Shown here: piece after piece, positions 1 through 46,246 of the stretch
How the letters are laid out: the number at the start of each line of letters is the position of its first letter
Position numbering within the stretch: position 1 is the stretch's first letter
From: Escherichia coli
GTDB taxonomy: Bacteria > Pseudomonadota > Gammaproteobacteria > Enterobacterales > Enterobacteriaceae
Reading direction: 5' to 3' (one strand)
Assembly (NCBI RefSeq): GCF_045037415.1
Contig: NZ_CP173438.1
DNA length: 64,000 nucleotides
Notes under the pieces: generated by a model
Databases searched by the model: none
What the model was told of the DNA's origin: nothing
What the model saw: the letters and a program-made list of their open reading frames with translations, nothing else
Made by a program: the position numbers and the translations under genes

Positions 1-721
1 TCAGTCTGGCGGTTGTGCTATCCATTGCCAGGATTGCAGCATCAGCCAGCTTTGCATCCCGTTCACACTCAACGAACATGAGCTTGATCAGCTTGATAAT
101 ATCATTGAGCGGAAGAAGCCTATTCAGAAAGGCCAGACGCTGTTTAAGGCTGGAGATGAACTTAAATCGCTTTATGCCATCCGCTCCGGTACGATTAAAA
201 GTTATACCATCACTGAGCAAGGCGACGAGCAAATCACTGGTTTCCATTTAGCAGGCGATCTGGTGGGATTTGATGCCATCGGCAGCGGTCATCACCCGAG
301 TTTCGCGCAGGCGCTGGAAACCTCGATGGTATGTGAAATCCCGTTCGAAACGCTGGACGATTTGTCTGGTAAAATGCCGAATCTGCGTCAGCAGATGATG
401 CGTCTGATGAGCGGTGAAATCAAAGGCGATCAGGACATGATCCTGCTGTTGTCGAAGAAAAATGCCGAGGAACGTCTGGCTGCATTCATCTACAACCTGT
501 CCCGTCGTTTTGCCCAACGCGGCTTCTCCCCTCGTGAATTCCGCCTGACGATGACTCGTGGTGATATCGGTAACTATCTGGGCCTGACGGTTGAAACCAT
601 CAGCCGTCTGCTGGGTCGCTTCCAGAAAAGCGGTATGCTGGCAGTCAAAGGTAAATACATCACTATCGAAAATAACGATGCGCTGGCCCAGCTTGCTGGT
701 CACACGCGTAACGTTGCCTGA
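1..721 (+). CDS. fnr: FNR, fumarate/nitrate reduction transcriptional regulator (5' end cut by window edge; frame begins at nt 2)
   Basis: Translation from nt 2 gives [18 protein letters not shown]... (Fe-S cysteine cluster) followed by the CRP/FNR-type body of ORF 263..721; stop TGA at 719-721. Confidence 0.95.
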
Positions 722-872
722 TTCTTCCGCATAACTCACTATCCTTCTGTCATATCATTAAATTTTTCTGATTTATTGATCTGACAGAAGGTTCATCACT
801 GTTTCATTCACCAGATATGGGTTAATCTTTTAATTACAAACTGCGTTGACAGTTGTTGTAAGGAGACCCTGT

Positions 873-1823
873 ATGGCTATGTATCAGAACATGCTCGTTG
901 TTATCGATCCTAACCAGGACGACCAACCAGCATTGCGGCGAGCTGTTTATTTACATCAACGGATTGGTGGCAAAATTAAAGCCTTTTTGCCGATCTATGA
1001 CTTCTCATACGAAATGACCACCCTGCTCTCTCCGGACGAACGTACCGCTATGCGTCAGGGCGTCATCAGCCAGCGTACAGCCTGGATCCACGAGCAGGCA
1101 AAATATTATCTCAATGCTGGCGTTCCCATTGAAATTAAAGTGGTCTGGCATAACCGTCCTTTCGAAGCCATCATTCAGGAAGTGATCAGCGGCGGGCACG
1201 ATTTGGTGCTAAAAATGGCGCACCAACATGACCGTCTGGAAGCGGTGATTTTTACGCCAACGGACTGGCATCTGTTACGCAAATGCCCAAGCCCCGTGTG
1301 GATGGTGAAAGACCAGCCGTGGCCGGAAGGGGGTAAGGCGCTGGTGGCGGTGAATCTCGCCAGTGAAGAGCCGTACCATAATGCGCTCAATGAAAAACTG
1401 GTCAAAGAGACGATCGAACTGGCAGAACAAGTCAACCATACCGAAGTTCATCTGGTTGGCGCTTATCCGGTAACGCCAATTAATATCGCGATTGAACTGC
1501 CGGAATTTGACCCGAGCGTTTATAACGATGCCATTCGTGGGCAACATTTGCTGGCAATGAAAGCTCTGCGACAGAAATTCGGCATTAATGAAAACATGAC
1601 GCACGTAGAAAAAGGTCTGCCAGAAGAGGTGATTCCTGATTTGGCGGAGCACTTACAGGCGGGGATTGTGGTTCTGGGCACGGTCGGACGCACCGGTATT
1701 TCAGCAGCATTCCTCGGCAACACGGCGGAACAGGTGATTGATCATCTTCGCTGCGACCTGCTGGTCATTAAACCTGACCAGTATCAGACACCCGTTGAAC
1801 TGGATGACGAAGAAGACGATTAA
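873..1823 (+). CDS. uspE: Universal stress protein E (tandem UspA domains)
   Basis: ORF 846..1823; start placed at [10 protein letters not shown] (nt 873) to give 316 aa; recognised protein sequence. Confidence 0.9.
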
Positions 1824-1844
1824 CGACTCTTCAATAACTGACAA

Positions 1845-1871
1845 GGCCCGAGTTATCGGGCCTATTTTTTA
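1845..1871. terminator. Hairpin plus T-tract between convergent uspE and ynaJ
   Basis: GGCCCGA-gtta-TCGGGCC stem followed by TATTTTTTA. Confidence 0.6.
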
Positions 1872-1872
1872 C

Positions 1873-2130
1873 TTACTGCTCTTCGCCGCCAAGGAAATAA
1901 ATTCCCAACGGGATTGCCAGCAACACAGTAAAGACCAGGCTATAAACAAAAATCATCGATGACTGAATCACATACATTGATGTCGTCCACTCAGACAGCG
2001 GAATATTGTACTGTTCTATAACGCCGCCGATGGTCGCGCGAGTCACAACCGACGCCGCAATAATGAAAACCGCCAACAAACCAAAGAGAAATTTCTTCCC
2101 TTTCGCTGACTTCAGTTTCGCCATAATCAT
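1873..2130 (-). CDS. ynaJ: Small inner-membrane protein YnaJ (DUF2534)
   Basis: 85-aa ORF with two hydrophobic segments; position between uspE and ynaI. Confidence 0.85.
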   Translation of the reverse strand: MIMAKLKSAKGKKFLFGLLAVFIIAASVVTRATIGGVIEQYNIPLSEWTTSMYVIQSSMIFVYSLVFTVLLAIPLGIYFLGGEEQ

Positions 2131-2373
2131 GATGTAATCCTTGTGCAGACAAATTTTTTGTTACCTAAACGTAACAATACCATGACATTTCACCGTTGTC
2201 TGCTCTGAAAACCTCACCTCTTAGCTGGATTTACAATCAACGCATTGATTAGTTAGCTAATGTTGCTACTTCCTTCCCTGACTATTGATGATCTGAATGA
2301 ATTGTCGCGGTAAAATAGTCCCGCCAGGGGTTTCCGGCATGACGACAATTATCTGGAGGAGCCTGATAAAACA

Positions 2374-3405
2374 ATGATCGCTGAACTGTTTACAAATAAT
2401 GCGCTTAATCTGGTCATTATTTTCGGTAGCTGCGCAGCATTGATTCTGATGAGCTTTTGGTTTCGCCGTGGAAATCGTAAAAGAAAAGGATTTTTATTCC
2501 ATGCGGTGCAATTTTTAATCTACACCATAATTATTAGTGCTGTTGGTAGCATCATTAACTATGTTATAGAAAACTATAAACTCAAATTTATCACCCCAGG
2601 CGTTATCGATTTTATCTGTACGTCCCTGATTGCGGTTATTCTGACGATTAAGCTATTTCTGCTGATTAATCAGTTTGAAAAACAGCAGATTAAAAAAGGT
2701 CGCGATATCACCAGTGCGCGGATCATGTCGCGCATTATCAAAATCACCATTATTGTGGTGCTTGTTCTGCTTTATGGCGAACATTTCGGCATGAGCCTTT
2801 CTGGCTTGTTGACCTTTGGTGGTATTGGTGGTCTGGCTGTCGGTATGGCCGGTAAAGATATTCTGAGTAACTTCTTTTCCGGGATTATGCTCTATTTCGA
2901 CCGTCCTTTCAGTATTGGCGACTGGATCCGTTCACCGGACAGAAATATCGAAGGTACAGTAGCGGAAATTGGCTGGCGAATTACCAAAATTAAGACCTTT
3001 GATAATCGTCCATTGTACGTACCGAACTCGCTGTTTTCGTCGATCAGCGTAGAAAATCCTGGACGAATGACCAACCGGCGCATTACCACGACCATTGGTT
3101 TACGTTATGAGGATGCGGCAAAAGTGGGCGTTATTGTCGAAGCCGTACGTGAGATGCTGAAAAATCACCCGGCCATCGACCAGCGACAAACCTTACTGGT
3201 TTATTTCAACCAGTTTGCTGATTCGTCATTAAATATTATGGTTTATTGCTTTACCAAAACCACGGTATGGGCTGAATGGCTTGCTGCACAGCAAGACGTT
3301 TATTTGAAGATTATCGATATTGTACAGTCACACGGCGCGGACTTTGCCTTCCCCAGCCAGACGCTGTATATGGATAACATTACACCGGCGGACCAGGGTC
3401 GCTAA
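2374..3405 (+). CDS. ynaI: MscS-family mechanosensitive channel YnaI
   Basis: 343-aa ORF; N-terminal TM helices plus MscS-like C-terminal domain; synteny. Confidence 0.9.
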
Positions 3406-3415
3406 ATCAGACATC

Positions 3416-3445
3416 ACTGGCGTTATCCACAAGGGTAACGCCAGT
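3416..3445. terminator. Bidirectional hairpin between convergent ynaI and mppA
   Basis: ACTGGCGTTA / TAACGCCAGT 10-bp inverted repeat with 10-nt loop. Confidence 0.5.
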
Positions 3446-3455
3446 TCTCATCACA

Positions 3456-5069
3456 TCAATGCTTCACAATATACATAGTCCGACTGTACGCCACATCTTC
3501 AGGGTTGTTAATGGGATAACCTTTCAGCCACGGCTTGATTAATCGTCCATTGGTATATTGATAAATTGGTGCAATCGGTGCTTGCTCCATGAGGATTTTT
3601 TCTGCCGCGTTGTAATCGGCATTACGCGCTTTAACGGTATTTTCCGTCGATGCCTGGGCCAGAACTTTGTCATATGCCGGATTGTTAAAGCGTGAAATAT
3701 TCCCGGAATGCGTTGACGTTAATAATGTCAGGAAAGTGGAGGGTTCATTATAATCCCCTACCCACGAGGCGCGGATAACATCAAAATTGCCGGTATTACG
3801 GCTATCGATATAGGTTTTCCATTCCTGGTTTTGCAATTTAACATCTACGCCCAGGTTCTTTTTCCACATCGATGCTACAGCAATCGCAATTTTTTGATGG
3901 TTTTCTGAAGTGTTATACAAAAGCGTCAGCTTCAGCGGTTTTTGCGGACCATAACCAGCGGCGCTCAACAAAGTTTTTGCCTGCGCATTCAGTTCTTCCT
4001 GACTCATTTGTTCAAACGGCGAAGGTTCCGGCGTAAATCCCGCGGTAACATCTGGTGTAAAATGCCACGCTGGCTTTTCGCCCGTCCCCAACACTTTTTC
4101 GGTCATCAGGCGGCGATCTATCGTCATACTTAATGCCAGGCGAACGCGCTGATCTGCCGTCGGCCCTTTTTGCGTGTTAAACGCATAATAATAGGTCCCG
4201 AGCTGCGGCGGCGTATAAACCTGCCCCGGAATATCCTTCAACAGCTTCTGATACATATTTTTCGGGAAGGATTCGGTGATATCAATATCCCCCGCGAGAT
4301 AACGCTTAGTGGCTGCGGATTCCTGATTAATTGGCAGGAAGGTCACTTTTTGCAGTACCGTTTTGGCGTTATCCCAATAATGGGTATTCGGCACTACGAC
4401 CAGTTTTTCATTGACTACGCGCTCTTTAAGAACATAAGCGCCATTGCCGATCAGATTTCCGGGTTTCGTCCACTCTTTACTGCTTTCTACGTTGGCTTTT
4501 TGCACCGGGAAGAAGGCAAAGTTAGCGGTTAAATTCACAAACCACGGCAACGGTTTATCAAGCTGGATTTTCAAAGTATGGGCATCAACTGCGGTAACGC
4601 CAAGCTGGTCAGGCGTGGCTTTACCATCAATAATCGCCTGTGCGTTGTTGATTCCCGCCAGCGCGGCAAACCATGCAAATGGCGAAAGCGTTTTCGGGTC
4701 CACCAGACGTTGCCAGCTGTAGACAAAATCTTGCGCCGTTACCGGTGTGCCATCCGCCCATTTTGCGTTATCGCGCAGGGTAAAAGTCCAGATACGGTTG
4801 TCATTACTTTTCCACTGAGTCGCAACGCCGGGGACAATCTCCCCTTTCTCGTTCTGATTCACCAGTCCTTCAAACAGATCGCGAATGACCTGAATCTCCG
4901 GCAGGCCCACGGCTTTAGCGGGATCCAGCGACGCTGGCTCATCTTTAATGTGGCGCACCAGCTCCTGCTTCTCTGCCAGTACTGTGCCGCTCGGAACTTC
5001 AGCAGCATACGAAAGAGAAATGCTGCTGACCAACAGCGCACAACACGTGACTGAAACAGAGTGCTTCAT
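3456..5069 (-). CDS. mppA: Periplasmic murein tripeptide-binding protein MppA (OppA paralog)
   Basis: ORF 3456..5090; start placed at MKHSVSVTCCALL (signal peptide) giving 537 aa; SBP family 5. Confidence 0.9.
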   Translation of the reverse strand: MKHSVSVTCCALLVSSISLSYAAEVPSGTVLAEKQELVRHIKDEPASLDPAKAVGLPEIQVIRDLFEGLVNQNEKGEIVPGVATQWKSNDNRIWTFTLRDNAKWADGTPVTAQDFVYSWQRLVDPKTLSPFAWFAALAGINNAQAIIDGKATPDQLGVTAVDAHTLKIQLDKPLPWFVNLTANFAFFPVQKANVESSKEWTKPGNLIGNGAYVLKERVVNEKLVVVPNTHYWDNAKTVLQKVTFLPINQESAATKRYLAGDIDITESFPKNMYQKLLKDIPGQVYTPPQLGTYYYAFNTQKGPTADQRVRLALSMTIDRRLMTEKVLGTGEKPAWHFTPDVTAGFTPEPSPFEQMSQEELNAQAKTLLSAAGYGPQKPLKLTLLYNTSENHQKIAIAVASMWKKNLGVDVKLQNQEWKTYIDSRNTGNFDVIRASWVGDYNEPSTFLTLLTSTHSGNISRFNNPAYDKVLAQASTENTVKARNADYNAAEKILMEQAPIAPIYQYTNGRLIKPWLKGYPINNPEDVAYSRTMYIVKH

Positions 5070-5125
5070 AAGTTTCCCTCTAACCGACATTAAAATTGAT
5101 GCGTAATTATTTGTTTCGCCTTAAA

Positions 5126-5161
5126 GAAATGCAAACAACTTCCATCAAAAAAGTGACAAAG
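5126..5161 (+). repeat. Copy A of a ~36-bp conserved element (AATGCAAACAACTTCC..CAAAAAAGTGA), upstream of mppA
   Basis: Near-identical to 8237..8273 (about 33 of 38 positions by eye). Confidence 0.7.
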
Positions 5162-5405
5162 GAAGCATCAAATGTTTTAAGTATCAATATATCAAATCAG
5201 ATTTAGTGTAAATAATAGTCTCCAAAATGCGGTAAAGCACATAGAACTCCGAACACTACGTTCGGGCTTCGCACATTCAAACCCGTTTTCGGTATCATAA
5301 TCAGCATCTGTCGCCATTGTGCGAAGAATAAAAAATAACCAAAACGTTGAAAGGAACTGAGAATACGTTAAGAGAAGAATTAAATTAATGTATCAGCAAG
5401 TAGTG

Positions 5406-6305
5406 CTAAACAGCACCTTTATACTTCAGCCTATCTATAAATAATGAGAATGCCGAGCCAGCATGTCGACGGTGTGGATAGTACAGGTGATAACCGGGTA
5501 AATCTGGTGTGAATTTATCCAAAACACGTATCAGTTTTTTTTCTTTAATAGCCCGCTCCACCTGATCATAAGGTAGATACGCCAATCCATGCCCATCAAT
5601 TGCAGCATCAATGATCAGATCTATCGTATTCAGTAAAAGCTGACCTTCCATGCGAACACGAACTTCACGTCCACCGCGTATTAATCTCCAGCGATTTGCT
5701 GTACCCGATGTGGGAAGATACAAATTAATTGCCTGATGATCTATTAATTGTGACACTGACGTTGGAGCACTTCGACGAGAAAAATAATCCGGTGAGCCAA
5801 CAATAGCCATTGGTATGTCTGGCCCGATTCGAATGGCGATCATATCTTTATCCATCTCCCCACCCAGACGGACGCCTGCATCAAAACGTTCAGAAACGAC
5901 ATCGGTCAAACCATAATCAATGGTAAGCTGAATATCAATTTCAGGATGCGATTTCAGGAATGTGCGCATGGCTGGTAACAATATCGTTTTTGCTGCATGT
6001 TCTACAGTAGTAATACGTATTGTCCCGGATGGGCGGTTCTGCAGATCGCTCAGGGATGTCAGGGCAGAATCTATGTCATGCAACATAGGGCCAAGAACAG
6101 ACAAAAGATGCTCGCCCGCTTCAGTGGGTACAACGCTGCGCGTGGTTCGCGTCAGAAGCCGCAATCCCAATCGTTCTTCTATACGGCGCACTATCTGGCT
6201 TAAAGCTGACTGCGCCATGCTCAGGCGGGCTGCTGCGCGAGTGAAGCTACGCTCCTCTGCAACAACGACAAACGCCATCAGATCAGCGATTTCTTCACGC
6301 TTCAT
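5406..6305 (-). CDS. ycjZ: LysR-family transcriptional regulator YcjZ
   Basis: 299-aa ORF; N-terminal LysR HTH (FTRAAARLSMAQSALSQ) and substrate-binding domain. Confidence 0.85.
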   Translation of the reverse strand: MKREEIADLMAFVVVAEERSFTRAAARLSMAQSALSQIVRRIEERLGLRLLTRTTRSVVPTEAGEHLLSVLGPMLHDIDSALTSLSDLQNRPSGTIRITTVEHAAKTILLPAMRTFLKSHPEIDIQLTIDYGLTDVVSERFDAGVRLGGEMDKDMIAIRIGPDIPMAIVGSPDYFSRRSAPTSVSQLIDHQAINLYLPTSGTANRWRLIRGGREVRVRMEGQLLLNTIDLIIDAAIDGHGLAYLPYDQVERAIKEKKLIRVLDKFTPDLPGYHLYYPHRRHAGSAFSLFIDRLKYKGAV

Positions 6306-6442
6306 TCAGTATCTCCATACAATCTATTAATCATTTAAATGATAGGTCTAATCATGATTTTGGGTCTAATCAACTTAATGATCAATATCTATAGTGATAT
6401 CACCAACCGTTAAAACGAACCGACAACTCCATGAGGAACGGA

Positions 6443-7363
6443 ATGATGAATAATAAAGTCAGCTTCACTAACAGCAATAATCCAACCATCTCTTTGTCTG
6501 CAGTGATCTATTTCCCTCCAAAATTTGATGAAACCCGTCAGTATCCGGCAATTGTGGTATCTCACCCAGGTGGGGGCGTTAAAGAGCAAACGGCCGGAAC
6601 CTATGCCGAAAAACTGGCGGAAAAAGGATTTGTCACTATTGCTTATGACGCATCTTATCAAGGTGAAAGCGGCGGCGAGCCGCGTCAGTTAGAAAACCCA
6701 TACATTCGTACTGAAGACGTCAGTGCCGTGATTGATTACCTGACAACGCTTTCTTATGTCGACAATACCCGAATTGGTGCGATGGGAATTTGTGCCGGTG
6801 CAGGATATACAGCCAATGCTGCAATTCAGGATCGCCGCATCAAGGCCATCGGTACTGTTAGTGCGGTCAATATTGGTTCGATGTTCCGTAATGGTTGGGA
6901 AAACAATGTGAAATCTATTGATGCCCTACCATACGTTGACGCGGGTTCAAACGCCCGAACCAGCGATATTAGCAGCGGAGAATACGCCACTATGCCACTG
7001 GCACCAATGAAGGAGTCCGATGCGCCGAACGAAGAACTGCGTCAGGCCTGGGAATATTACCACACCCCTCGCGCGCAGTATCCAACAGCACCGGGTTACG
7101 CTACTTTGCGCAGCCTTAACCAGATTATTACCTATGATGCTTACCATATGGCGGAAGTGTACCTGACTCAGCCGATACAGATTGTGGCGGGCAGCCTGGC
7201 TGGGAGCAAATGGATGAGTGACGACCTGTACGATCGAGCATCAAGCCAGGATAAACGCTATCACATTGTTGAAGGCGCAAACCATATGGATCTTTATGAT
7301 GGCAAAGTCTATGTGGCTGAAGTAATTTCAGTATTAGCTCCGTTCTTTGAGGAAACTCTGTAA
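6443..7363 (+). CDS. ycjY: Alpha/beta-hydrolase family protein YcjY
   Basis: ORF 6431..7363; start placed at second/third ATG after an AGGA; GxCxG nucleophile-elbow-like motif (MGICAGAG). Confidence 0.8.
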   Translation: MMNNKVSFTNSNNPTISLSAVIYFPPKFDETRQYPAIVVSHPGGGVKEQTAGTYAEKLAEKGFVTIAYDASYQGESGGEPRQLENPYIRTEDVSAVIDYLTTLSYVDNTRIGAMGICAGAGYTANAAIQDRRIKAIGTVSAVNIGSMFRNGWENNVKSIDALPYVDAGSNARTSDISSGEYATMPLAPMKESDAPNEELRQAWEYYHTPRAQYPTAPGYATLRSLNQIITYDAYHMAEVYLTQPIQIVAGSLAGSKWMSDDLYDRASSQDKRYHIVEGANHMDLYDGKVYVAEVISVLAPFFEETL

Positions 7364-7433
7364 TGAAACATATTCAAATCCGTAATAGTGATATGGCCTG
7401 GCATATTGCTGCCAATAATCTGGGAAAAGTTTC

Positions 7434-8072
7434 ATGAAAAATGTACTGATTCTTGGTGCTGGCGGTCAGATAGCCCGCCATGTGATTAATCAACTGGCAG
7501 ATAAACAAACCATTAAACAAACTTTATTTGCCCGTCAGCCAGCAAAAATCCACAAACCCTATCCAACTAATAGCAAGATTATTATGGGGGATGTACTGAA
7601 TCATGCAGCACTGAAGCAGGCCATGCAGGGACAGGATGTTGTGTATGCCAACCTTACGGGGGAAGATTTAGATATTCAGGCAAATTCAGTGATCGCTGCG
7701 ATGAAAGCCTGTGATGTTAAACGTCTGATCTTTGTTCTTTCCCTCGGTATTTATGATGAAGTTCCAGGAAAATTTGGCGAATGGAATAATGCAGTTATTG
7801 GTGAACCCCTAAAACCATTCCGCAGGGCTGCGGATGCAATTGAGGCTTCTGGACTGGAATATACAATTCTTCGCCCTGCCTGGCTGACTGATGAAGATAT
7901 TATTGATTATGAGCTTACCTCACGCAATGAACCATTCAAAGGTACGATCGTATCACGTAAGAGTGTCGCAGCATTAATCACAGATATCATCGATAAACCT
8001 GAGAAACACATTGGTGAGAATATAGGCATCAATCAACCCGGGACTGATGGTGATAAGCCCTTCTTCATGTAA
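7434..8072 (+). CDS. NAD(P)-binding NmrA/SDR-like oxidoreductase (ymjC-like, apparently intact)
   Basis: 212-aa ORF; N-terminal Rossmann motif VLILGAGGQIARHV. Confidence 0.75.
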   Translation: MKNVLILGAGGQIARHVINQLADKQTIKQTLFARQPAKIHKPYPTNSKIIMGDVLNHAALKQAMQGQDVVYANLTGEDLDIQANSVIAAMKACDVKRLIFVLSLGIYDEVPGKFGEWNNAVIGEPLKPFRRAADAIEASGLEYTILRPAWLTDEDIIDYELTSRNEPFKGTIVSRKSVAALITDIIDKPEKHIGENIGINQPGTDGDKPFFM

Positions 8073-8090
8073 ATCAATTATATAGCTACC

Positions 8091-8117
8091 ATCGTACTGT
8101 ACTATGTGCAGTACGAT
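8091..8117 (+). terminator. Hairpin downstream of the ymjC-like gene
   Basis: ATCGTACTG / CAGTACGAT 9-bp inverted repeat followed by an AT-rich tract. Confidence 0.4.
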
Positions 8118-8236
8118 TTATTAAACTTATTAAGGTGAACTGATCAATCAGATGCGATTAACATGTGTAGAACCAGTAAGAATAAAATACGCCATGTATA
8201 TAACATTACGACAATTCTAATATCTGCACATCAATG

Positions 8237-12388: not shown

Positions 12389-13450
12389 TTATTTTTCGCT
12401 GGGCGTTTTGCCTTTTTGCAGAGTTTCTTTCACCTGACCGATAAGCTGACGACGGAAATCCCCGAGGCGTGGCTTGTCATCGTCAATCCACGGCAGCGGG
12501 CGGCAAAGCTCCATAGCTTTAATCCCGAGTCGTGCCGTCAGAAGTCCAGCACCAATCCCCTGAGCTGCCCGGGTAGACAAACGCGCAGCGAGATCTTGCG
12601 ACATCCAGTCCATCCCCACTTCGCGCACCAGTTCGCTGGCTCCGGCGAAAGCGATATTCAGCAATACCAGCTTAAACAGGCGCAAACGGCTGTAATATCC
12701 CAGTTCAATGCCATACAGCGTGGCGATGCGATTAATCAAACGCAGATTGCGCCAGGCGATAAACGCCATATCCACCAGCGCCAGTGGGCTAACGGCAATC
12801 ATTAACGTTGATTCCGCCGCTGAGCGGCTGATTTCGCGCCGCGCCTGGGCATCTAAAACTGGCTGGACCAGGTGAGCATACAAACTGACCACTTCACGAT
12901 CGTTCTGCGTTTCATGGATTGAGGCATACCAGCGCTGCAGCGCCGGATGTGACTGATCGATGCCCGCCTGCTGCGCCAGTTTTTCGCAGAATGCACGGCC
13001 TTTACCCGTGCCGTGACTGTGCAACAAATCGCGCGCTTCATCGCGTTCATGGGCGCGCTGTCGCAAGCGCCATAAGCGCCGCCACTCTGTTACCACAGAA
13101 CCTACGCCAGCGCCGATAATCAATGCCCCAGCGGCACATCCACCCAGCGCCACCCAGTCCTGGGTTTGCCAGGCGTTCATTGTCCACTGCACGCCCTGCC
13201 CGACAACGCTTGCGCCAAACAGAGCCAGCCCGCCCATCACCATTTTGCGCCACAGGCTGCGTTTCGGACGTAACGCTGCGTCCATCACCGCTTCAACTTG
13301 CCCCTCTTCTTCCTGTGCTTCGTCGAGCGTGGCCGGGGCAAAATTTTGCGCCTGATTTTCGTCAAAGGTCTGCTGCGCCCTGAATTTTGGATTCTGATCG
13401 ACCTCCAGTGGACCGTCGAAATCAATACGTGGTTTTAACGGTTCGGTCAT
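12389..13450 (-). CDS. ycjF: Inner-membrane protein YcjF (DUF697)
   Basis: 353-aa ORF; start overlaps the ycjX stop by 4 bp. Confidence 0.85.
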
Positions 13451-16998: not shown

Positions 16999-18081
16999 TT
17001 AGCAAATTGCTATTTCCGTTTCTGCATCAAAGAAATGACATTTAGTCATATCAAAATGAATAGTGATATTTTCTCCTGCATGATAATCATTTAACGCACC
17101 AGCACGGACCACTAACTCGTGCCCCCCAACCGTGGTGTAGAGCATAAATTCCGCACCGGTTAATTCCGCCACGCTAATTTTGGCGGAAATGTTATTTTCT
17201 TCTTGCGCATCCGGATGAATATCCTCCGGGCGTATTCCCATCACAATGGGTTTATGTAAACTTTCCTGCGTTTTCAGAACCGCTAATTTCTCTTCGGGAA
17301 TGGTTAATTTAAGTGTTTCCGTAACGAATTTATCGCCATCGATCGTGCCGCGAATAAAATTCATTGCTGGTGACCCAATAAATCCGGCAACAAACATATT
17401 CGCCGGTTGGTTATAGACCGTTTTCGGCGCACCGACCTGCTGAACAATCCCATCCTTCATAATGACAATCCGCGTCGCCATGGTCATCGCTTCGGTCTGA
17501 TCGTGGGTCACGTAGATCATGGTGGTGTTCAGTTTCTGATGCAGCTTGCTGATCTCTGCGCGCATTTGCACACGCAGCTTGGCATCCAGGTTAGAGAGCG
17601 GCTCATCCATTAAAAACACGCCCGCTTCGCGCACAATCGCCCGCCCAAGCGCCACTCGCTGACGTTGCCCGCCGGAAAGCGCGCCCGGCTTGCGTTTCAG
17701 GTACTCACGCAGGCCGAGGATTTGCGCCGCCCAGTTAACCCGCTCATCAATCATCTCTTTGGCGATTTTTTGTATCTTCAGGCCAAACGCCATGTTGTCG
17801 TAGACCGTCATATGCGGATACAGCGCGTAGTTCTGGAACACCATCGCGATATTGCGTGCTTTGGCTGGAACGTCATTCATTCGTTTGCCGTCGATCAACA
17901 GCTCACCGCCGCTGATCTCCTCAAGCCCGGCAATCATACGCAGGGTGGTCGATTTACCGCAGCCCGACGGACCGACAAACACGATGAACTCTTTATCGGC
18001 AATCTCCAGGCTGAAGTCCTTCACCACATGCACCTGGTTATCGTAGATCTTTTGAATATGTTGTAACGAAAGCTGTGCCAT
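16999..18081 (-). CDS. ycjV: ABC transporter ATP-binding protein YcjV (MalK/UgpC-like), apparently intact
   Basis: 360-aa ORF; Walker A GPSGCGKST, signature LSGGQRQRV, Walker B FLMDEPLS and a C-terminal MalK-type regulatory domain. Confidence 0.9.
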   Translation of the reverse strand: MAQLSLQHIQKIYDNQVHVVKDFSLEIADKEFIVFVGPSGCGKSTTLRMIAGLEEISGGELLIDGKRMNDVPAKARNIAMVFQNYALYPHMTVYDNMAFGLKIQKIAKEMIDERVNWAAQILGLREYLKRKPGALSGGQRQRVALGRAIVREAGVFLMDEPLSNLDAKLRVQMRAEISKLHQKLNTTMIYVTHDQTEAMTMATRIVIMKDGIVQQVGAPKTVYNQPANMFVAGFIGSPAMNFIRGTIDGDKFVTETLKLTIPEEKLAVLKTQESLHKPIVMGIRPEDIHPDAQEENNISAKISVAELTGAEFMLYTTVGGHELVVRAGALNDYHAGENITIHFDMTKCHFFDAETEIAIC

Positions 18082-32095: not shown

Positions 32096-32167
32096 ATCTC
32101 TCAGCGCATCCTGCAAAATTTTCATTGCCGCATCGAATTGCGCAACCGGGATGGTATGGGCTTCGTT
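32096..32167 (-). pseudogene. Possible 3'-terminal remnant of a class-III aminotransferase gene (puuE/gabT-like)
   Basis: Minus-strand frame ends ...[24 protein letters not shown] followed by stop TAA at 32093-32095; resembles GabT-type C-termini (TIxDAQ.....I); no upstream ORF. Confidence 0.3.
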
Positions 32168-37422: not shown

Positions 37423-38229
37423 ATGATCGAAACGCTACTTGAAGTGCGTAATTTAAGTAAAACGTTCCGCTACCGGACCGGCTGGTTTCGTCGTCAGACC
37501 GTAGAAGCGGTAAAACCCTTGAGCTTTACGCTACGTGAAGGCCAGACACTGGCGATTATCGGCGAGAATGGTTCGGGTAAATCCACGCTGGCAAAAATGC
37601 TGGCGGGAATGATAGAACCTACCAGCGGCGAGTTATTGATTGACGATCATCCGCTGCATTTTGGCGATTATTCCTTCCGCAGTCAGCGTATTCGCATGAT
37701 TTTTCAGGATCCTTCCACCTCGTTGAATCCCCGTCAACGTATCTCGCAAATTCTGGATTTTCCACTGCGCCTGAACACCGACCTGGAACCGGAACAGCGT
37801 CGCAAACAGATTATTGAAACGATGCGTATGGTTGGGCTGCTACCGGATCACGTCAGTTACTATCCGCATATGTTGGCACCCGGGCAAAAACAGCGTCTGG
37901 GTCTGGCGCGCGCGCTGATATTGCGCCCAAAAGTCATTATTGCCGATGAAGCCCTCGCCTCACTGGATATGTCGATGCGTTCGCAGTTGATTAATCTGAT
38001 GCTGGAGTTACAGGAAAAACAGGGCATTTCGTATATTTATGTTACCCAGCATATCGGAATGATGAAGCACATTAGCGACCAGGTGCTGGTGATGCATCAG
38101 GGCGAGGTTGTCGAGCGAGGCAGCACCGCAGATGTGCTGGCATCGCCGCTGCATGAACTCACCAAACGGCTGATCGCCGGTCATTTTGGCGAGGCATTGA
38201 CGGCGGATGCGTGGCGTAAGGACCGTTAG
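37423..38229 (+). CDS. sapF: ABC transporter ATP-binding protein SapF
   Basis: 268-aa ORF; Walker A GENGSGKST. Confidence 0.9.
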   Translation: MIETLLEVRNLSKTFRYRTGWFRRQTVEAVKPLSFTLREGQTLAIIGENGSGKSTLAKMLAGMIEPTSGELLIDDHPLHFGDYSFRSQRIRMIFQDPSTSLNPRQRISQILDFPLRLNTDLEPEQRRKQIIETMRMVGLLPDHVSYYPHMLAPGQKQRLGLARALILRPKVIIADEALASLDMSMRSQLINLMLELQEKQGISYIYVTQHIGMMKHISDQVLVMHQGEVVERGSTADVLASPLHELTKRLIAGHFGEALTADAWRKDR

Positions 38230-38236
38230 TGTTTTG

Positions 38237-38272
38237 CACCTCATCCTGACAGGCCCCCCTCAGGATGAGGTG
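38237..38272. terminator. Bidirectional hairpin between convergent sapF and the MFS gene
   Basis: CACCTCATCCTGA / TCAGGATGAGGTG perfect 13-bp inverted repeat with 10-nt loop. Confidence 0.6.
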
Positions 38273-38276
38273 TTCA

Positions 38277-39440
38277 TTACTTTTGGTTGTCGATTCTGGT
38301 GAGAGCAACCAGCAATGCCAGCGTATAACACACCGTAATTGCCAGACTCATTTTTAACAGTGTTTCTCCGCCAATTCCCGACAATGGCGCGGCTATACCG
38401 CCGAAGACAAACATGCTCATCCCCATCAACGCAGACGCCGTTCCAGATTCCTGCGTCCCTACTGCACTCATAGCCTCTGCCCCGCCAACAGTGCCGATGC
38501 CGCTACAAAATGCGATGGTGAAAAATAATGCCACCAGTGCCGGAATGGGCAATTGTATCCATGCGCATAAGACCGTGAGCAATGCACACAAAATTGCCGC
38601 TATCAGGCCACCTCGCAACAATGTCATCGCGTTAATCCGTCGCGCCAGGCGCGAGAAGATCCATGAAGCAATGATAAGTCCGGTGCCGTTAAGGCCAAAC
38701 ACCAGGCTAAATTGCATTGGACTAAAGCCAAATTCCTTCTGCAACACGAACGACGAAGAGCCGATATATGCAAACAAACCGGCCAGCATAAAACTTTGAA
38801 TCAGGCAAAAGCGCATAAAACGGCGGTTCTGCACCACGCTTCGTCCGGTTAATAGCAATGATGAGCCCCTTTTATTTTCTGGCAAGGTCTCATGAATAAA
38901 TAACAGACAGCCCAGCAACAGTACGGTGCTAATTTCAGCCATTACCCAGAATAAAGTGCGCCAGTCAAAAGTGCTAACAATGTACCCGCCCAGCACTGGC
39001 GACAACACCGGTGCCAGGCCATTCACCGTCATTAACAGCGCAAAAAACTGGGTCAACGTTACTCCCTGATATTTGTCACGAGCAATAGAACGAGAGAGCA
39101 CCGAACCACCCGCCCCCGCGATCCCTTGAATAAAACGCCAGACCACCAGCCAGTAAATATTGTTCGTTGTCGCGCATAAAATGGAAGAAACAATAAACAA
39201 TAGCAACGACAAGATTAACGGACGTTTACGCCCTATTTTGTCGCTCAGAGGGCCAAATAACAGTTGTCCGACGCCAAGACCAATCAGTGATGCGGTCAGG
39301 GTTAATTGCGTTATGGTCGTGGTTGCCGCCAGTTGCTCAGACATCTCCGGCAAAGCCGGCAAATAAAGATCGGTACACATCGGGCCGATACCGGCTAAAA
39401 GACCAAGAATCAATGCCCATGAAAGAGAGACTCTAGCCAT
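38277..39440 (-). CDS. MFS drug:H+ antiporter, Bcr/CflA (DHA1) family
   Basis: 387-aa ORF; about 12 predicted TM helices; MFS motif A GPLSDKIGRKRP; N-terminus resembles Bcr. Confidence 0.8.
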   Translation of the reverse strand: MARVSLSWALILGLLAGIGPMCTDLYLPALPEMSEQLAATTTITQLTLTASLIGLGVGQLLFGPLSDKIGRKRPLILSLLLFIVSSILCATTNNIYWLVVWRFIQGIAGAGGSVLSRSIARDKYQGVTLTQFFALLMTVNGLAPVLSPVLGGYIVSTFDWRTLFWVMAEISTVLLLGCLLFIHETLPENKRGSSLLLTGRSVVQNRRFMRFCLIQSFMLAGLFAYIGSSSFVLQKEFGFSPMQFSLVFGLNGTGLIIASWIFSRLARRINAMTLLRGGLIAAILCALLTVLCAWIQLPIPALVALFFTIAFCSGIGTVGGAEAMSAVGTQESGTASALMGMSMFVFGGIAAPLSGIGGETLLKMSLAITVCYTLALLVALTRIDNQK

Positions 39441-39448
39441 ATTATTCC

Positions 39449-40822
39449 TTACTTGAGTGATGACATACCGCCGCCCAGCGACTGCCAGAGCGTGATTCGG
39501 TTTGTAAAATCAGTCAGTTGCAGTGCCAGCAGCTCCTGCTGTGCGCTCCACAAGCTGCGCTGCGCCGTCAACACGGTCAGGTAATCACCAACACCCGCCT
39601 GATAGCGACGCAAGCCAACATCGACCGTTTGTTGTTCAGCTTTAACATACTGGCGCTGTGCATCCAGTTGCTCTTCAAGCGTGGTCCGCCGCGCCAGTGC
39701 GTTAGCGACATCTTTAAATGCGCTCTGAACGGTTTTTTCATAGGTGGCAATGAGTCCACGCTTTTGTGCTTCTGCGTAACGAAGCTGCGCCAGATTACTT
39801 CCGCCAGTAAACAGCGGTAATGTGACCGATGGCGCAAATGACCAGATCTGCATTCCGTGGCTGAACAACGACGACAACGCGTCACTGCCAACACCGGCAC
39901 TGGCAGTCAGCGAAATCGTCGGGAAAAAGTTAGCCCGCGCCGCGCCAATATCTGCATTGGCGCTCTTCAAATTATGTTCCGCTTCCTGGATATCCGGGCG
40001 ACGCAGCAGAACATCAGATGATACTCCCGCAGGAACCAGACTTATCATTTGTTCCGGCAGGCTTTCCAGTGTTCCCGGTAGCAGATTTTCCGCAAGCGTT
40101 GTACCTGCCAGTAAGTTCAGCGCATTTTTATCCTGCATCACTTGTGTCTGATAGCTGGCAACGCTGGCGCGCGCTTGCTGATAAACACTCATCGCCTCAC
40201 TGACATCTGTCGCTGCCGCCGTGCCAACCTGTTGCTGGCGCTGGATAATTTTCAATGAGTTTTCTGCACTGGCCATCGTTTCTTTTGCCAGGGCCAGGTT
40301 GCTGTTATCAGCCGCCAGTGTCAGCCAGGCGGTGCTGATTTCAGCAATCAGCGTTAAACGAGTGTTCTGGGCTGTAAATTCACTGGCAAGCCAGGTTTCC
40401 CGCGCCGCCCGAGATAAACTCTGATTACGACCAAACAGATCTAACGTATAACTGGACACCGTGCCGTCAGCCTCGGCAGTTGTTCCCGTACCATTCGCCA
40501 GCGAACGGCTGCGGGTCGAACTTAAGGCCGCATTCACCGTCGGAAATAACGACGCATTAGTTTGCCCATAGAGCGCCCGTGCTGAGTCAATATCAGCAAT
40601 CGCTTTTTGCACATCGCGGTTACTGTTCAGTGCAATGGTTACTACCTGCTGCAATCGGGGATCGTGGATCACCTGCTGCCAGTCATGGCTGATTGCCTTC
40701 CCCTGGCCCTGTGCTCCCGGCAAGGTCGCCGGGATTGGGGATTCAGGCGTACTGTAGTGAGGATCGAGCGAGACACATCCCGCACTCAACAACACCAGAA
40801 AAATAAGAGAACGACGCAACAT
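39449..40822 (-). CDS. Outer-membrane efflux lipoprotein (OMF, NodT/OprM family)
   Basis: 457-aa ORF; lipobox LLSAGC; two coiled-coil/TolC-like repeats. Confidence 0.85.
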   Translation of the reverse strand: MLRRSLIFLVLLSAGCVSLDPHYSTPESPIPATLPGAQGQGKAISHDWQQVIHDPRLQQVVTIALNSNRDVQKAIADIDSARALYGQTNASLFPTVNAALSSTRSRSLANGTGTTAEADGTVSSYTLDLFGRNQSLSRAARETWLASEFTAQNTRLTLIAEISTAWLTLAADNSNLALAKETMASAENSLKIIQRQQQVGTAAATDVSEAMSVYQQARASVASYQTQVMQDKNALNLLAGTTLAENLLPGTLESLPEQMISLVPAGVSSDVLLRRPDIQEAEHNLKSANADIGAARANFFPTISLTASAGVGSDALSSLFSHGMQIWSFAPSVTLPLFTGGSNLAQLRYAEAQKRGLIATYEKTVQSAFKDVANALARRTTLEEQLDAQRQYVKAEQQTVDVGLRRYQAGVGDYLTVLTAQRSLWSAQQELLALQLTDFTNRITLWQSLGGGMSSLK

Positions 40823-40825
40823 AAC

Positions 40826-43800
40826 TTACTCCTGACGGCGCGGTTTACCGGCAAACAAACGTTTCACCAGTACAAAAAACAGAGGAACGAAGAAAATGGC
40901 CAGTAATGTAGCGGTCAGCGTGCCGCCAATAATGCCCGTACCAATGGCGATGCGGCTGTTCGCCCCTGCGCCGGTTGCTATCGCCAGCGGCATTACCCCC
41001 GCAATAAACGCCAGCGAGGTCATGATGATTGGGCGTAAACGAGTCTGCGCCGCGCGTAATGCCGCACGACTCAAGGAATAGCCCTCTGCAACCGCCGCTT
41101 CAGCAAATTCCACAATCAGAATGGCGTTTTTCGACGACAAGCCGATAGTAGTTAATAGCGCTACCTGGAAGTAAACGTCGTTGTTTAAATCACGCATCCA
41201 GGCCGCCAGCGCCGCGCCAAGAAGCCCCAGAGGGATCACCAGAATGACCGAGAACGGGACTGACCAGCTTTCGTACAGTGCTGCAAGGCAGAGGAAAACC
41301 ACCAGAATAGAAACTGCATACAGACTTAATGCCTGACCGCTGGCCAGTTTCTCCTGCAATGACAAACCACTCCAGGCCCAGGTTGTTCCCGCAGGAAGAC
41401 TGTTTGCCAGTTCCTCCATTTTTGTCATTGCATCGCCGGAACTAAAGCCAGTCGCGTTTTCGCCCTGAATTTCATAGGCTGCCGAGCCGTTGTAGCGCAC
41501 CAGTCTTTCCGGTCCATACAGCCAGCGGGTGGTCGCAAAAGCAGAGAATGGTGTCATGGCGTTATCGCTGCCGCGCACAAACCATTTACCTAAGTCTGAC
41601 GGCGCGGAACGAAATTCGCTGTCGCCCTGAATGTAGACTTTTTTCACACGACCACGGTCAATAAAGTCATTCACATAAGTACCGCCCCACGCACTGGACA
41701 GGGTGTCGGTGACATCATTCAAACTCAACCCTAATGACACCGCTTTATTACTATCAATATCTACCTGCAATTGCGGCATTTGTGGCAAATCATTGGCGCG
41801 TACAGAATGTAACTCCGGACTTTGATTCGCTTTTTCTATCAACTGATTACGCATTTGCAGCAGTGTTTCACGATCGGTTCCACCGTTAGCTAACAATTCA
41901 AACGTAAAACCATTGCTTTGGCCCAGCCCATCAACGGCTGGCGGCGTCATCGCAAATACCGTGGCATCACGAATTGTGCCCAGCTCTTTGGTTGCCCGTA
42001 GGGCGATAGCCTGGGCGGTGTTTTCTGCCCCTTTACGTTGAGACCAGTTTTTCAACGAAACAAACGCCATCCCGGTGTTCTGTCCGCTACCGCTAAAACT
42101 GAAACCATCAACGGTAAAGATGACATCGGTATTTGCTTTCTCGTTAATCAGGAACCAGTCAACAATCTGGCGATTCACTTCTGCTGTACGGGCAGCGGTC
42201 GCCCCGGCCGGCAGCGTGTACTGCACCATGATTTCGCCCTGGTCTTCAGTGGGTAAGAAACTGCCCGGCAGTTTCCACATCATCAGGGCCATTCCACCAC
42301 CCAGCACGACATAAAGCCCCATCGTTCGGGCTGCACGGCGCAGGACATAAATTACGCCTCGCTGATATTTATCTTCAGTACGGCGGTAAAAGCGGTTAAA
42401 TGCGCCGAAAAAGCCTTTTTTATGTGGTGGAACATGCTGGAGGACGGAACCGCACAGGGCGGGAGTCAAGGTCAATGCCACCACCACGGAAAGCAGCATT
42501 GCGGAGATGATGGTGATGGAGAACTGACGATAAATTACCCCCGTAGATCCCCCAAAGAAGGCCATCGGCAGGAATACGGCTGACAACACCAGCGCAATGG
42601 CAACCAGTGCGCCAGAAATCTCGCCCATTGATTTTTCCGTGGCTTCACGCGCGGGCAACCCTTCGTCACGCATAATGCGTTCGACGTTCTCTACCACCAC
42701 AATGGCATCGTCCACCAGCAAGCCGATCGCCAGCACCATTGCAAACAACGTCAGGGTATTAATCGAATAGCCAAACAACGCAAGAACGCCGAATGTGCCC
42801 AGCAAAACGACGGGGACAGCTAACGCCGGAATCAGTGTGGCACGCAGGTTTTGCAGGAATAAATACATCACGCAAACCACCAATACGATGGCTTCAAACA
42901 GCGTCTGAATTACGTCCTCTACGGAGATTTTAATAAATTCAGTGCTGTCTTTCGGGTATGCGATGTCGTATCCCTGCGGCATGTTCCGCTGGAATTCGGC
43001 AATCTTATCCTTGACCAGCGTCGCCGTATTCAGCGCATTCGCACCGGGCGAAAGCATTACAGCAACCCCGGCAGACGGGTGACCGTTAAGTTTGCCGATA
43101 GCGGTATAATCTTCACTGCCCATCTCAACGCGAGCCACATCTTTTATACGAACAACTGCGCCGTCTGACTGGCTTTTCACGATAATATTTTTGAACTGAT
43201 CCACCGTCTGCAAGCGAGACTGCGCACGTACCGTTGCGGTCAGTTGCTGAGTATCCGGTGAAGGCAATGCCCCTATTTTCCCGGCAGTAACCTGCACGTT
43301 TTGCGCTTCAATAGCACTTTGCACGTCTGAAGGCATCAGCGAGTAAGACGCCAGTTTGGCCGGGTCAAGCCAGATGCGCATAGCGTATTCCGCGCCAAAG
43401 ACTTGCAGACTCCCCACACCTTCAACACGCGCCAGCGGGTCCTGAACGTTACTGACCAGCCAGTCGGCGATATCCGAACTGGAGGCTTTGTCAGTGGTGT
43501 CATACACGGCAGCAATCAGCAAAAAGTTGCTTTGTGATTTCTCCACCGTAACACCCGTTTGCTGCACTTCGCTGGGTAGGCGCGACTCCGCCTGCTGAAT
43601 TTTATTCTGCACCTGAACCTGTGCAGTATCTGGATCGGTACCTTGTTCAAAGGTCACATTAATACTGACCGAACCATCAGAGCTACTGGTTGAGCTGAAA
43701 TAGAGTAAATTATCAAGCCCAGTGAGTTGTTGCTCGATAACCTGAGTCACGCTGTTCTCCAGCGTTTCGGCAGAAGCACCAGTATAAGTGGCTGAAATTT

Positions 43801-43933
43801 TAATGGTCGGCGGTGCAACGTCAGGATATTGCGCGACGGGCAATGTGCGAATAGCCAGAATCCCTGCCAACATAATCAAAATGGCGATAACCCAGGCAAA
43901 GACCGGGCGGCGAACAAAAAAGCGCGAAAACAT
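40826..43933 (-). CDS. RND multidrug efflux transporter (HAE1 family, AcrB/MexB-like)
   Basis: 1035-aa ORF; N-terminus MFSRFFVRRPVFAWVIAILIMLAG and overall motifs closely parallel AcrB but not identical; 12-TM RND architecture. Confidence 0.9.
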   Translation of the reverse strand: MFSRFFVRRPVFAWVIAILIMLAGILAIRTLPVAQYPDVAPPTIKISATYTGASAETLENSVTQVIEQQLTGLDNLLYFSSTSSSDGSVSINVTFEQGTDPDTAQVQVQNKIQQAESRLPSEVQQTGVTVEKSQSNFLLIAAVYDTTDKASSSDIADWLVSNVQDPLARVEGVGSLQVFGAEYAMRIWLDPAKLASYSLMPSDVQSAIEAQNVQVTAGKIGALPSPDTQQLTATVRAQSRLQTVDQFKNIIVKSQSDGAVVRIKDVARVEMGSEDYTAIGKLNGHPSAGVAVMLSPGANALNTATLVKDKIAEFQRNMPQGYDIAYPKDSTEFIKISVEDVIQTLFEAIVLVVCVMYLFLQNLRATLIPALAVPVVLLGTFGVLALFGYSINTLTLFAMVLAIGLLVDDAIVVVENVERIMRDEGLPAREATEKSMGEISGALVAIALVLSAVFLPMAFFGGSTGVIYRQFSITIISAMLLSVVVALTLTPALCGSVLQHVPPHKKGFFGAFNRFYRRTEDKYQRGVIYVLRRAARTMGLYVVLGGGMALMMWKLPGSFLPTEDQGEIMVQYTLPAGATAARTAEVNRQIVDWFLINEKANTDVIFTVDGFSFSGSGQNTGMAFVSLKNWSQRKGAENTAQAIALRATKELGTIRDATVFAMTPPAVDGLGQSNGFTFELLANGGTDRETLLQMRNQLIEKANQSPELHSVRANDLPQMPQLQVDIDSNKAVSLGLSLNDVTDTLSSAWGGTYVNDFIDRGRVKKVYIQGDSEFRSAPSDLGKWFVRGSDNAMTPFSAFATTRWLYGPERLVRYNGSAAYEIQGENATGFSSGDAMTKMEELANSLPAGTTWAWSGLSLQEKLASGQALSLYAVSILVVFLCLAALYESWSVPFSVILVIPLGLLGAALAAWMRDLNNDVYFQVALLTTIGLSSKNAILIVEFAEAAVAEGYSLSRAALRAAQTRLRPIIMTSLAFIAGVMPLAIATGAGANSRIAIGTGIIGGTLTATLLAIFFVPLFFVLVKRLFAGKPRRQE

Positions 43934-45054
43934 CAGGCGTTGCCTCCATTAGCCTGAACTTCAACAGCCTTGACGGTCTGCCCTGAAGTGACTTTGGCAG
44001 AACCTTCAACAATCAGTCGGTCGCCGTTGTGCAGGCCGTTCAGCACCAGCCATTTATCACCATACGTTTCTCCCGTTTCGAGCGTTCGCTGCTCTACTTT
44101 ATTGTCTTTATTCACCACCAGCGCAGTTGCATTGCCTTTAGCATCGCGCGTAACGCCCTGTTGAGGCGCGAGAATAGCGTTTTCCATCACGCCTTCATCG
44201 ACACGAGCGCGAACAAACATTCCCGGTAATAACTGCTGTTGTGGATTGGGGAAAATTGCCCGTAATATCACCGAACCGGTAGACTCATCCACCGCGACTT
44301 CGGTGAGTTCCAGACGCCCTTTTTCGCTGTAGGTTGTGCCATCTTCCAGAATAAGTGAGACGCTCATGGTGTCACTGTTGGTCGCCAGTGACTGTTTACG
44401 CAGACGTAATAAATCGACACTGGAGCGAGTGAGGTCGACATACATTGTATCCAGACCACGAATAGTCGTTAACGCTGTATCCTGCGACGCGGTCACCAGT
44501 GCGCCAGGGGTTACCGACGAAATACCAATACGCCCCGAAATCGGTGCGGTTACCGTGGTCCAGTCAAGATTAATGCGCGCAGTTTCCAGTGCGGCTTTTT
44601 TCGCCTCTACACTGGCTTTATCTTGTGCACAGGTAGACTGAGCATCATCAGCATCCTGTTGTGAAACACCATTCTCTTTCACCAGTCGGGCATAACGCTG
44701 CGCTTTCTGGCAATCGGCTTTTACCAGTGCCTGTGCTTGTTGTAATGCTGCCCGGGCTTCATTCCATGCAGCCTGATAACTGGCCGCATCAATCTGGTAG
44801 AGAGGCTGTCCAGCCTTGACCAGATCACCTTCCTTAAATAAGCGTTTCTGGATAATTCCCCCAACCTGCGGACGTACTTCAGCACTGAGCGCAGCACTGG
44901 TGCGTCCGGTTAATTCACTGACTACCGAAACCGGTTGAGATTTGAGCGTAACAACGCCGACTTCTGTTTCTGACGGGGATGAATTGTTACTTTGCGTATT
45001 ATCACAACCCGATAAGAGCAGCATTGCCACTACAGATGTTGCTATATACTTCAT
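43933..45054 (-). CDS. RND periplasmic adaptor (membrane fusion protein, AcrA/MexA-like lipoprotein)
   Basis: ORF 43933..45087; start placed at MKYIATSVVAMLLLSGC (ATG 45052-45054, preceded by GGAG SD); 1-nt overlap with the RND start. Confidence 0.85.
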   Translation of the reverse strand: MKYIATSVVAMLLLSGCDNTQSNNSSPSETEVGVVTLKSQPVSVVSELTGRTSAALSAEVRPQVGGIIQKRLFKEGDLVKAGQPLYQIDAASYQAAWNEARAALQQAQALVKADCQKAQRYARLVKENGVSQQDADDAQSTCAQDKASVEAKKAALETARINLDWTTVTAPISGRIGISSVTPGALVTASQDTALTTIRGLDTMYVDLTRSSVDLLRLRKQSLATNSDTMSVSLILEDGTTYSEKGRLELTEVAVDESTGSVILRAIFPNPQQQLLPGMFVRARVDEGVMENAILAPQQGVTRDAKGNATALVVNKDNKVEQRTLETGETYGDKWLVLNGLHNGDRLIVEGSAKVTSGQTVKAVEVQANGGNA

Positions 45055-45138
45055 TATTTTCTCCAGGGTGAGAAATACCCTCCTCATTGAAATTAATGAG
45101 GATATGTCAGGGATATTCAGTTATAACGAACCCGCATC

Positions 45139-45154
45139 GCGAAATGAATTTCGC
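45139..45154. promoter_or_regulatory. Candidate repressor operator upstream of the adaptor-RND-OMF-MFS genes
   Basis: Palindrome GCGAAATGAATTTCGC (7+2+7) about 85 bp upstream of the adaptor start codon. Confidence 0.4.
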
Positions 45155-45164
45155 AATGAAATAA

Positions 45165-45182
45165 GGGGGATTAATATCCCCC
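45165..45182 (-). terminator. Hairpin downstream of the TetR-family gene (possible attenuating terminator before the pump genes)
   Basis: GGGGGAT-taat-ATCCCCC inverted repeat about 20 bp after the TetR stop, followed on the minus strand by TTATTT. Confidence 0.5.
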
Positions 45183-45202
45183 GCTATTGGTTAATTCTGT
45201 TC

Positions 45203-45769: not shown

Positions 45770-45795
45770 TTCTGTCTCCTGGCCTATCACTTGGT

Positions 45796-45827
45796 GAGAA
45801 TGATCATTCTCATTTTTGCTAATTATA
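45796..45827 (-). promoter_or_regulatory. Candidate promoter -10 with overlapping palindromic operator for the TetR-family gene
   Basis: Minus strand: TATAAT at 45822-45827, then 10 bp, then perfect 16-bp palindrome GAGAATGATCATTCTC (45796-45811), about 27 bp before the start codon. Confidence 0.5.
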
Positions 45828-46246
45828 CGTTTCTCCAAAGTAATGGAAAGTATTTTTATCTTATTCATGATGCATATTCTGATAATGAAGAGATTGTGGA
45901 GATTCTGTGAAGATAGTTGACAATATTAAGTTGGAGTCAATTCATCAGAAAGACAGCGACTTGTTGTCGCCAGTTCTGTTTTCATCATTAAACTTATAGG
46001 AGCTAATACGAATAGTTTCAAAGTCAGATTCTATAAGATATTTCCCCAACCTCCCCCTTGCAGGCGTCAGGAGTAGATAACGCAAAATGCTCTGTACCGC
46101 AGCTTCTCTCCGCTACAGAAAGCGCAACTATAGCCACCCACAGCCAGGTTGATTATAATAACCGTTTATCAGTTCGTACTGTTTACTAAAACGACGAATC
46201 GCCTGATTTTCAGGCACAACAAGCATCAACAATAAGGATTAAAGCT

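Follow-up and report, generated by a model that had tools for sequence, protein, structure and literature searches.

An uninterrupted ynaJ-ynaI intergenic region in Escherichia coli at the site occupied by IS5F in K-12

The window, by which is meant the whole 64,000-nucleotide stretch of Escherichia coli DNA analysed here, has at its left end the gene order fnr (partial, +), uspE (+, 873-1823), ynaJ (-), ynaI (+), mppA (-) and pgrR (-). ynaJ (1873-2130, - strand) encodes an 85-residue DUF2534 inner-membrane protein, the orthologue of MG1655 b1332, and ynaI (2374-3405, + strand) encodes a 343-residue low-conductance mechanosensitive channel of the MscS family, the orthologue of b1330. Both assignments come from the open reading frames together with the RefSeq annotation, and they place the uninterrupted spacer between the two divergent genes at exactly 2131-2373, a length of 243 bp, just as an earlier note on this DNA had given it. 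The RefSeq coordinates of ynaJ and ynaI are the same in strain SK1144, which is 100% identical to the window over 1873-3405. The best matches of the window include O25b:H4 strains, which we take to be of the ST131 type. Between the convergent uspE and ynaJ genes lies a G+C-rich hairpin with T-runs at 1844-1863; the uspE-ynaJ bidirectional terminator, which has served as a model for RNA-polymerase collision (bioRxiv 10.1101/2022.10.23.513370), locates to this position.

A copy of IS5 is characterised by a transposase gene (insH/ins5A, about 326 aa) and by 16-bp terminal inverted repeats (GGAAGGTGCGAACAAG / GGAAGGTGCGAATAAG), and the spacer has neither. With the flanking genes and the reading frames lying mostly inside ynaJ set aside, it contains only short reading frames of 21-31 aa, and the terminal repeat core GGAAGGTGCGAA, searched for on both strands of the whole 64-kb window, was not found. 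A blastn comparison of IS5F from MG1655 with the whole window returned nothing beyond chance matches, none longer than 18 bases. Since the core is missing from both strands of the window, the spacer is neither an IS5 copy nor the remnant of one, in agreement with the claim that it holds no transposase frame and no IS terminal repeats. The corresponding junction of MG1655 is occupied. NC_000913.3 carries the feature 'insertion sequence:IS5F' at 1396044-1397238 (1,195 bp), with insH4 (b1331), between ynaI (b1330) and ynaJ (b1332), and the IS5 that the earlier note had placed in MG1655 is thus a matter of annotation. Megablast of the window against MG1655 1330000-1400500 aligned window 1-2256 with MG1655 1399494-1397239 and window 2253-7572 with MG1655 1396043-1390724, so that the alignment named beforehand as a possible refutation has IS5 at this very junction. 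The flanks of the site are 99% identical between the window and MG1655. Absence of K-12 IS copies from other E. coli is expected, and the K-12 element between ynaI and ynaJ is already known; the empty site of the window is a correct but ordinary strain difference.

IS5 targets YTAR and makes a 4-bp duplication. The two MG1655 alignment blocks overlap by four bases, TTAG, at window 2253-2256, and the flanks in MG1655 read ...AGCTAA, then IS5, then CTAACTAATC...; removal of IS5 together with one CTAA from MG1655 yields a sequence of 243 bp which differs from the window spacer by 2 substitutions. The block overlap and this reconstruction confirm the CTAA-type target that had been supposed to lie in the spacer and locate it at 2253-2256 (TTAG on the + strand, CTAA on the - strand). 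At this position the YTAR tetranucleotide is present once in the window, whereas it is directly duplicated beside an inserted element in two genomes, around IS5F in MG1655 and around ISKpn26 in Eco_23-3571. The spacer has five YTAR sites, at 2165, 2221, 2249, 2253 and 2257. That at 2253-2256 forms the first half of the palindrome TTAGCTAA (2253-2260) and the second half of a tandem TTAG-TTAG, TTAGTTAG, at 2249-2256. In BW25113 the ynaI/ynaJ intergenic IS5 is one of 11 copies and is 100% identical to wild-type IS5, and CTAA/CTAG sites border the IS5 copies of that strain (PMC11677980).

Two insertions of other elements were found in the spacer. Eco_23-3571 (NZ_CM176496.1), a non-laboratory strain isolated on St Kitts from an African green monkey, was recovered with a query joining the flank to the IS5 end in reverse orientation. 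Its ISKpn26 copy (91.4% identity to IS5) occupies the same CTAA, has the same 4-bp duplication and is inverted relative to the K-12 element. In FDAARGOS_943 the trinucleotide TAG (2250-2252) is duplicated by a different, unrelated IS5-family element of about 915 bp, flanked by spacer positions 1-122 and 120-243. The ends of this element are GGCTGTGTCCCTTAAT...ATTAAGGGACACAGCC, and its transposase uses a programmed frameshift. FDAARGOS_943 also has a 10-bp deletion at the equivalent of 2283-2292, in the otherwise conserved ynaI-proximal part of the spacer and a little upstream of the candidate ynaI -10 element, and IS4-family insertions which disrupt mppA.

The distribution of the empty and occupied states was assessed in complete E. 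coli genomes. A 200-bp query with the target at its centre was covered to at least 80% in 5,055 of 5,426 genomes, and the site was scored as uninterrupted in these, as the joining rule of the search tool cannot bridge a 1.2-kb insertion; some match was obtained in 5,422. A 160-bp query spanning the K-12 junction on the ynaI side was fully covered in 355 genomes, and a 54-bp query limited to the junction was matched in 357, at least one spurious plasmid match at 80% coverage being among them. All of the matches listed (60 for the 160-bp query and 20 full-length ones for the 54-bp query) look K-12-type by strain name and genome size (4.5-4.7 Mb); they include MG1655, W3110, DH1, DH5alpha, C600, MC4100, J53, NCM3722, the ER and NEB strains and O16:H48, and each listed K-12-type genome has several to many matches to the IS5 end. 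Among the 367 genomes without an uninterrupted site, about 10 fall outside the characterised insertion alleles, and some of these probably lack one flank entirely, because the 367 genomes gave only 354 extra places. The suggestion that the site could act as a simple strain marker is therefore well borne out by these counts and by the K-12-like character of the listed carriers: the insertion is a marker of the K-12 lineage and the window represents the common state. Its presence or absence separates K-12-derived strains, about 355 of the 5,426, from essentially all other E. coli.

Further differences between the window, MG1655 and SK1144 lie outside the spacer. The window is 99.98-99.99% identical to SK1144 (L005) over the first 50.7 kb, the part that was compared. 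SK1144 lacks about 670 bp inside ycjF (window 12623-13279), where the window aligns to MG1655 without a gap; this difference indicates that the window comes from a close relative of SK1144 and not from SK1144 itself. At 7573-8232 the window has 660 bp missing from MG1655 which complete a gene for an SDR-family oxidoreductase (7434-8072 in the SK1144 annotation); MG1655 has there only the short ymjC and ymjD, apparently remnants of such a gene. The SK1144 annotation has an intact gene for an ABC-transporter ATP-binding protein (L005 16327-17409, approximately window 16999-18081 on adding a 672-bp offset), the counterpart of ycjV, which is a pseudogene (ycjV + ymjB) in MG1655. An 8.85-kb segment, MG1655 1357905-1366753, is missing from the window, where the adjoining blocks abut at about 32152-32155 between pspF and ymjA. 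It comprises most of puuP, ymjE, puuA, puuD, puuR, puuC, puuB and nearly all of puuE, genes of putrescine utilisation, and SK1144 has only a small gene remnant at the pspF-ymjA junction. Conversely, between sapF and fabI the window has a 7.9-kb segment (38229-46123) which is not in MG1655 and stands in place of the ycjD region. Its reading frames, all on the - strand, are 38277-39440, 39449-40822, 40826-43933, 43933-45087 and 45203-45868, and the SK1144 annotation of the segment gives an MFS transporter, an outer-membrane efflux subunit, an RND permease, a periplasmic adaptor and a TetR-family regulator.

The spacer itself is unevenly conserved. Across six Escherichia lineages, the ynaJ-proximal block (2131-2204) has 62% invariant columns and a mean pairwise identity of 0.81, the AT-rich and poorly conserved central block (about 2205-2260) 39% and 0.66, and the ynaI-proximal block (2261-2373) 79% and 0.90. 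The IS5 target thus falls in the least conserved block. On the ynaJ side, SMRT-Cappable-seq of MG1655 detected a ynaJ-only transcript starting at 1397328 (PMC6131387, Supplementary Data 2). This start was measured in K-12 and is transferred to the window strain by a gap-free alignment, in which it corresponds to position 2167 of the - strand and precedes the ATG by 37 nt. TATTGT (2179..2174) precedes this start by exactly 7 nt and, with TG at 2182..2181, makes up a putative extended -10 element, TGgTATTGT (2174-2182, - strand). A putative -35-like hexamer, CAGACA (2197-2202, - strand), is placed 17 nt further upstream. Across Escherichia there is hardly any variation in the block 2171-2190, and TTGTCTGC at 2196-2203 is kept in all lineages. 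The two hexamers, read by hand, would constitute the ynaJ promoter. An inverted repeat, TTGTTAC-N6-GTAACAA (2158-2177), overlaps the -10/+1 region of this promoter; its arms are mostly kept from species to species and its 6-nt centre is variable, the pattern expected of an operator, and we regard it as a candidate for one. A second inverted repeat, ATCAA-N4-TTGAT (2236-2249), lies centrally in the spacer, with 3 bp between it and the IS5 target. Its TTGAT arm is invariant in the six lineages, two of the six have a single substitution in its ATCAA arm, and its 4-nt centre is variable. It is a candidate protein-binding site. Term-seq of MG1655 has placed an RNA 3' end at 1397380 (bioRxiv 10.1101/2020.07.18.207399 supplements), which corresponds to about 2115 in the window, on the - strand and 15 nt inside the ynaJ coding sequence. 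Together with the start at 2167, this implies a short 5' transcript of ynaJ of about 53 nt, which could result from premature termination or from processing.

On the ynaI side, TAAAAT at 2311-2316 (+ strand) is invariant in all aligned Escherichia and is a candidate -10 element, from which transcription would start near G2323. GGAGGA (2355-2360, + strand), within an invariant block at 2351-2369, is the candidate ribosome-binding site of ynaI. A strict sigma-70 consensus scan of both strands over 1800-2500 gave no promoter hits, with 1.6 expected in shuffled sequences. No ynaI start was found in the Romero et al. supplement (PMC4681348), nor any with matching coordinates in the accessible part of the Cappable-seq supplement (PMC4782308), and the SMRT-Cappable-seq data (PMC6131387) list ynaJ but not ynaI. 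A SELEX study of sigma-S RNA polymerase reported a peak inside ynaI of K-12, at 1393856 in the coordinates of that study (PMC5493296). Converted from these older coordinates it falls about 90 bp inside ynaI, a weak and low-resolution hint that polymerase binds nearby. In the work of Edwards et al. (2012) (PMC3508906), ynaI showed no strong dependence on RpoS. The description of the spacer as the native divergent promoter region accordingly holds for its ynaJ half, where a published start maps to the spacer and fits a conserved promoter, whilst for the ynaI half conservation is what suggests it.

The empty state was compared across species with a single scan of species-representative genomes for the YnaI pore-helix pattern, which returned E. 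albertii, E. whittamii, two further Escherichia species, two divergent E. coli and two Yersinia. ynaJ was not detected beside ynaI in the two Yersinia loci, and the scan returned no Salmonella, Citrobacter or Klebsiella, so that the comparison rests on the Escherichia loci. Six of these were fetched; the spacer is exactly 243 bp in all five in which it is whole, and in the sixth (L013) the sequence, which aligns colinearly with the window spacer, stops at the start codon of ynaJ. Because five other Escherichia lineages share the 243-bp spacer, the empty state is ancestral, as its prevalence within E. coli would also have it. The window spacer is almost certainly the divergent regulatory region of the two genes in its ancestral form, never interrupted. 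Conceivably the lineage of the window had instead once carried IS5 and lost it by excision, with the tandem TTAGTTAG, which superficially resembles a retained 4-bp duplication, as its leftover. An excision footprint would add 4 bp, yet the spacer measures 243 bp in the five other lineages, and the same columns differ in other lineages of this length, reading TCGCTAGC, AAATTCGC and GAGCTGGC. The constant length across species, including those in which the sequence differs, rules out the tandem as a footprint and shows that it arose by substitution and not by insertion. Furthermore, IS5 in the K-12 orientation at this site was seen, among the matches listed, in K-12-like strains only, and secondary loss is extremely improbable.

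Reading frames of 21-31 codons are present within the spacer, and a terminator-like hairpin with a T-run lies on the - strand at 2339-2322, so that, besides promoters, the spacer might encode a small protein or a structured RNA which IS5 disrupts in K-12. Against this, the spacer has no match in Rfam at E<=1, IS5F is the only feature annotated there in MG1655, IS5 is located in the least conserved block, and shuffled sequences fold as well as the candidate ynaI leader (z = -0.54), on which ground a structured leader was rejected; such a gene product is very unlikely. The centre might also be a preferred target of IS5-group elements, owing to DNA structure or to a bound protein, with the K-12 insertion as one of several. 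Three independent insertions, those of IS5 in K-12, ISKpn26 in Eco_23-3571 and the approximately 915-bp element in FDAARGOS_943, fall within 7 bp (2250-2256), at a target which is half of the palindrome TTAGCTAA and adjoins the conserved ATCAA-N4-TTGAT. With only five YTAR sites in the spacer, however, two IS5-group elements would hit the same one about one time in five under uniform choice, and the site at 2165 lies inside the ynaJ promoter and leader, where insertions may be removed by selection. Insertions outside K-12 are also rare, two having been found among about 5,070 non-K-12 genomes. The centre may simply be where insertions are tolerated, which seems a simpler reading than a hot spot, and a true preference for this site is doubtful.

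On the reading favoured here, that the spacer of the window was never interrupted, IS5 transposed into the CTAA of the K-12 ancestor and duplicated it, an insertion that the window strain never received and that moved the starts of ynaJ and ynaI 1,199 bp further apart. About 121 bp remain between IS5F and ynaI, and 126 bp between IS5F and ynaJ, so that both core promoters, the candidate one of ynaI included, would be intact. In MG1655, SMRT-Cappable-seq (PMC6131387) detected a two-gene transcript, b1331|b1332, described as novel, whose 5' end lies within IS5F at 1396084, from which it follows that the transcript of the insH4 transposase gene reads through into ynaJ. The element has also been linked to genome instability. 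In a W3110 stock, the b1331 IS5 and a second IS5 near ogt border the ynaJ-uspE-fnr segment, and the two copies were taken by the authors to recombine at high frequency, deleting it; fnr deletions had been seen earlier in MG1655 stocks, as noted in the same study (PMC2072959). The reported deletion starts at 1395267 in U00096.2 coordinates (PMC2072959), by our own estimate some 5 bp beyond the right-hand end of IS5F when an offset of +1,976 is used to convert from U00096.2 to U00096.3. In the literature searched, read-through is the only documented effect on transcription, with no report of activation or repression of ynaJ or ynaI by IS5F, and the main paper on the YnaI channel (PMC3508906) makes no mention of an IS5 upstream of ynaI.

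Nearly all functional work on YnaI and YnaJ has used K-12, in which an upstream distance of 121-126 bp separates each gene from IS5. In the window ynaJ and ynaI are arranged as in natural strains, albeit without a new biological principle. It is rather unlikely that TTAG/CTAA 2253-2256, hit independently by IS5 and ISKpn26 and with a third IS 1 bp away, is a preferred landing site of IS5-group elements and that, in addition, the K-12 insertion measurably rewired the locus, through read-through and by cutting off the ynaI promoter from everything upstream of about -70, including ATCAA-N4-TTGAT. Were both true, expression data for YnaI and YnaJ from K-12 would be unrepresentative of wild-type E. 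coli, in which two promoters share a 243-bp region.

IS5 insertions upstream of promoters, as at glpFK, flhDC and fucAO, alter expression of the adjacent operon. The geometry in K-12 is comparable to these cases, with IS5 about 89 bp upstream of the ynaJ start and its transposase gene directed toward ynaJ, whereas in the window the element is absent. Relative to K-12, the window is thereby without the read-through from insH4 into ynaJ and without the IS5 linked to deletion of ynaJ-uspE-fnr. The CTAA target is shared with Eco_23-3571, in which the inserted element is a different member of the IS5 group from that of K-12; the window has neither. Compared with IS5F of MG1655, the chromosomal position is the same and the window lacks both the 1,195-bp element and the second CTAA. 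It represents the unoccupied allele of exactly that site.
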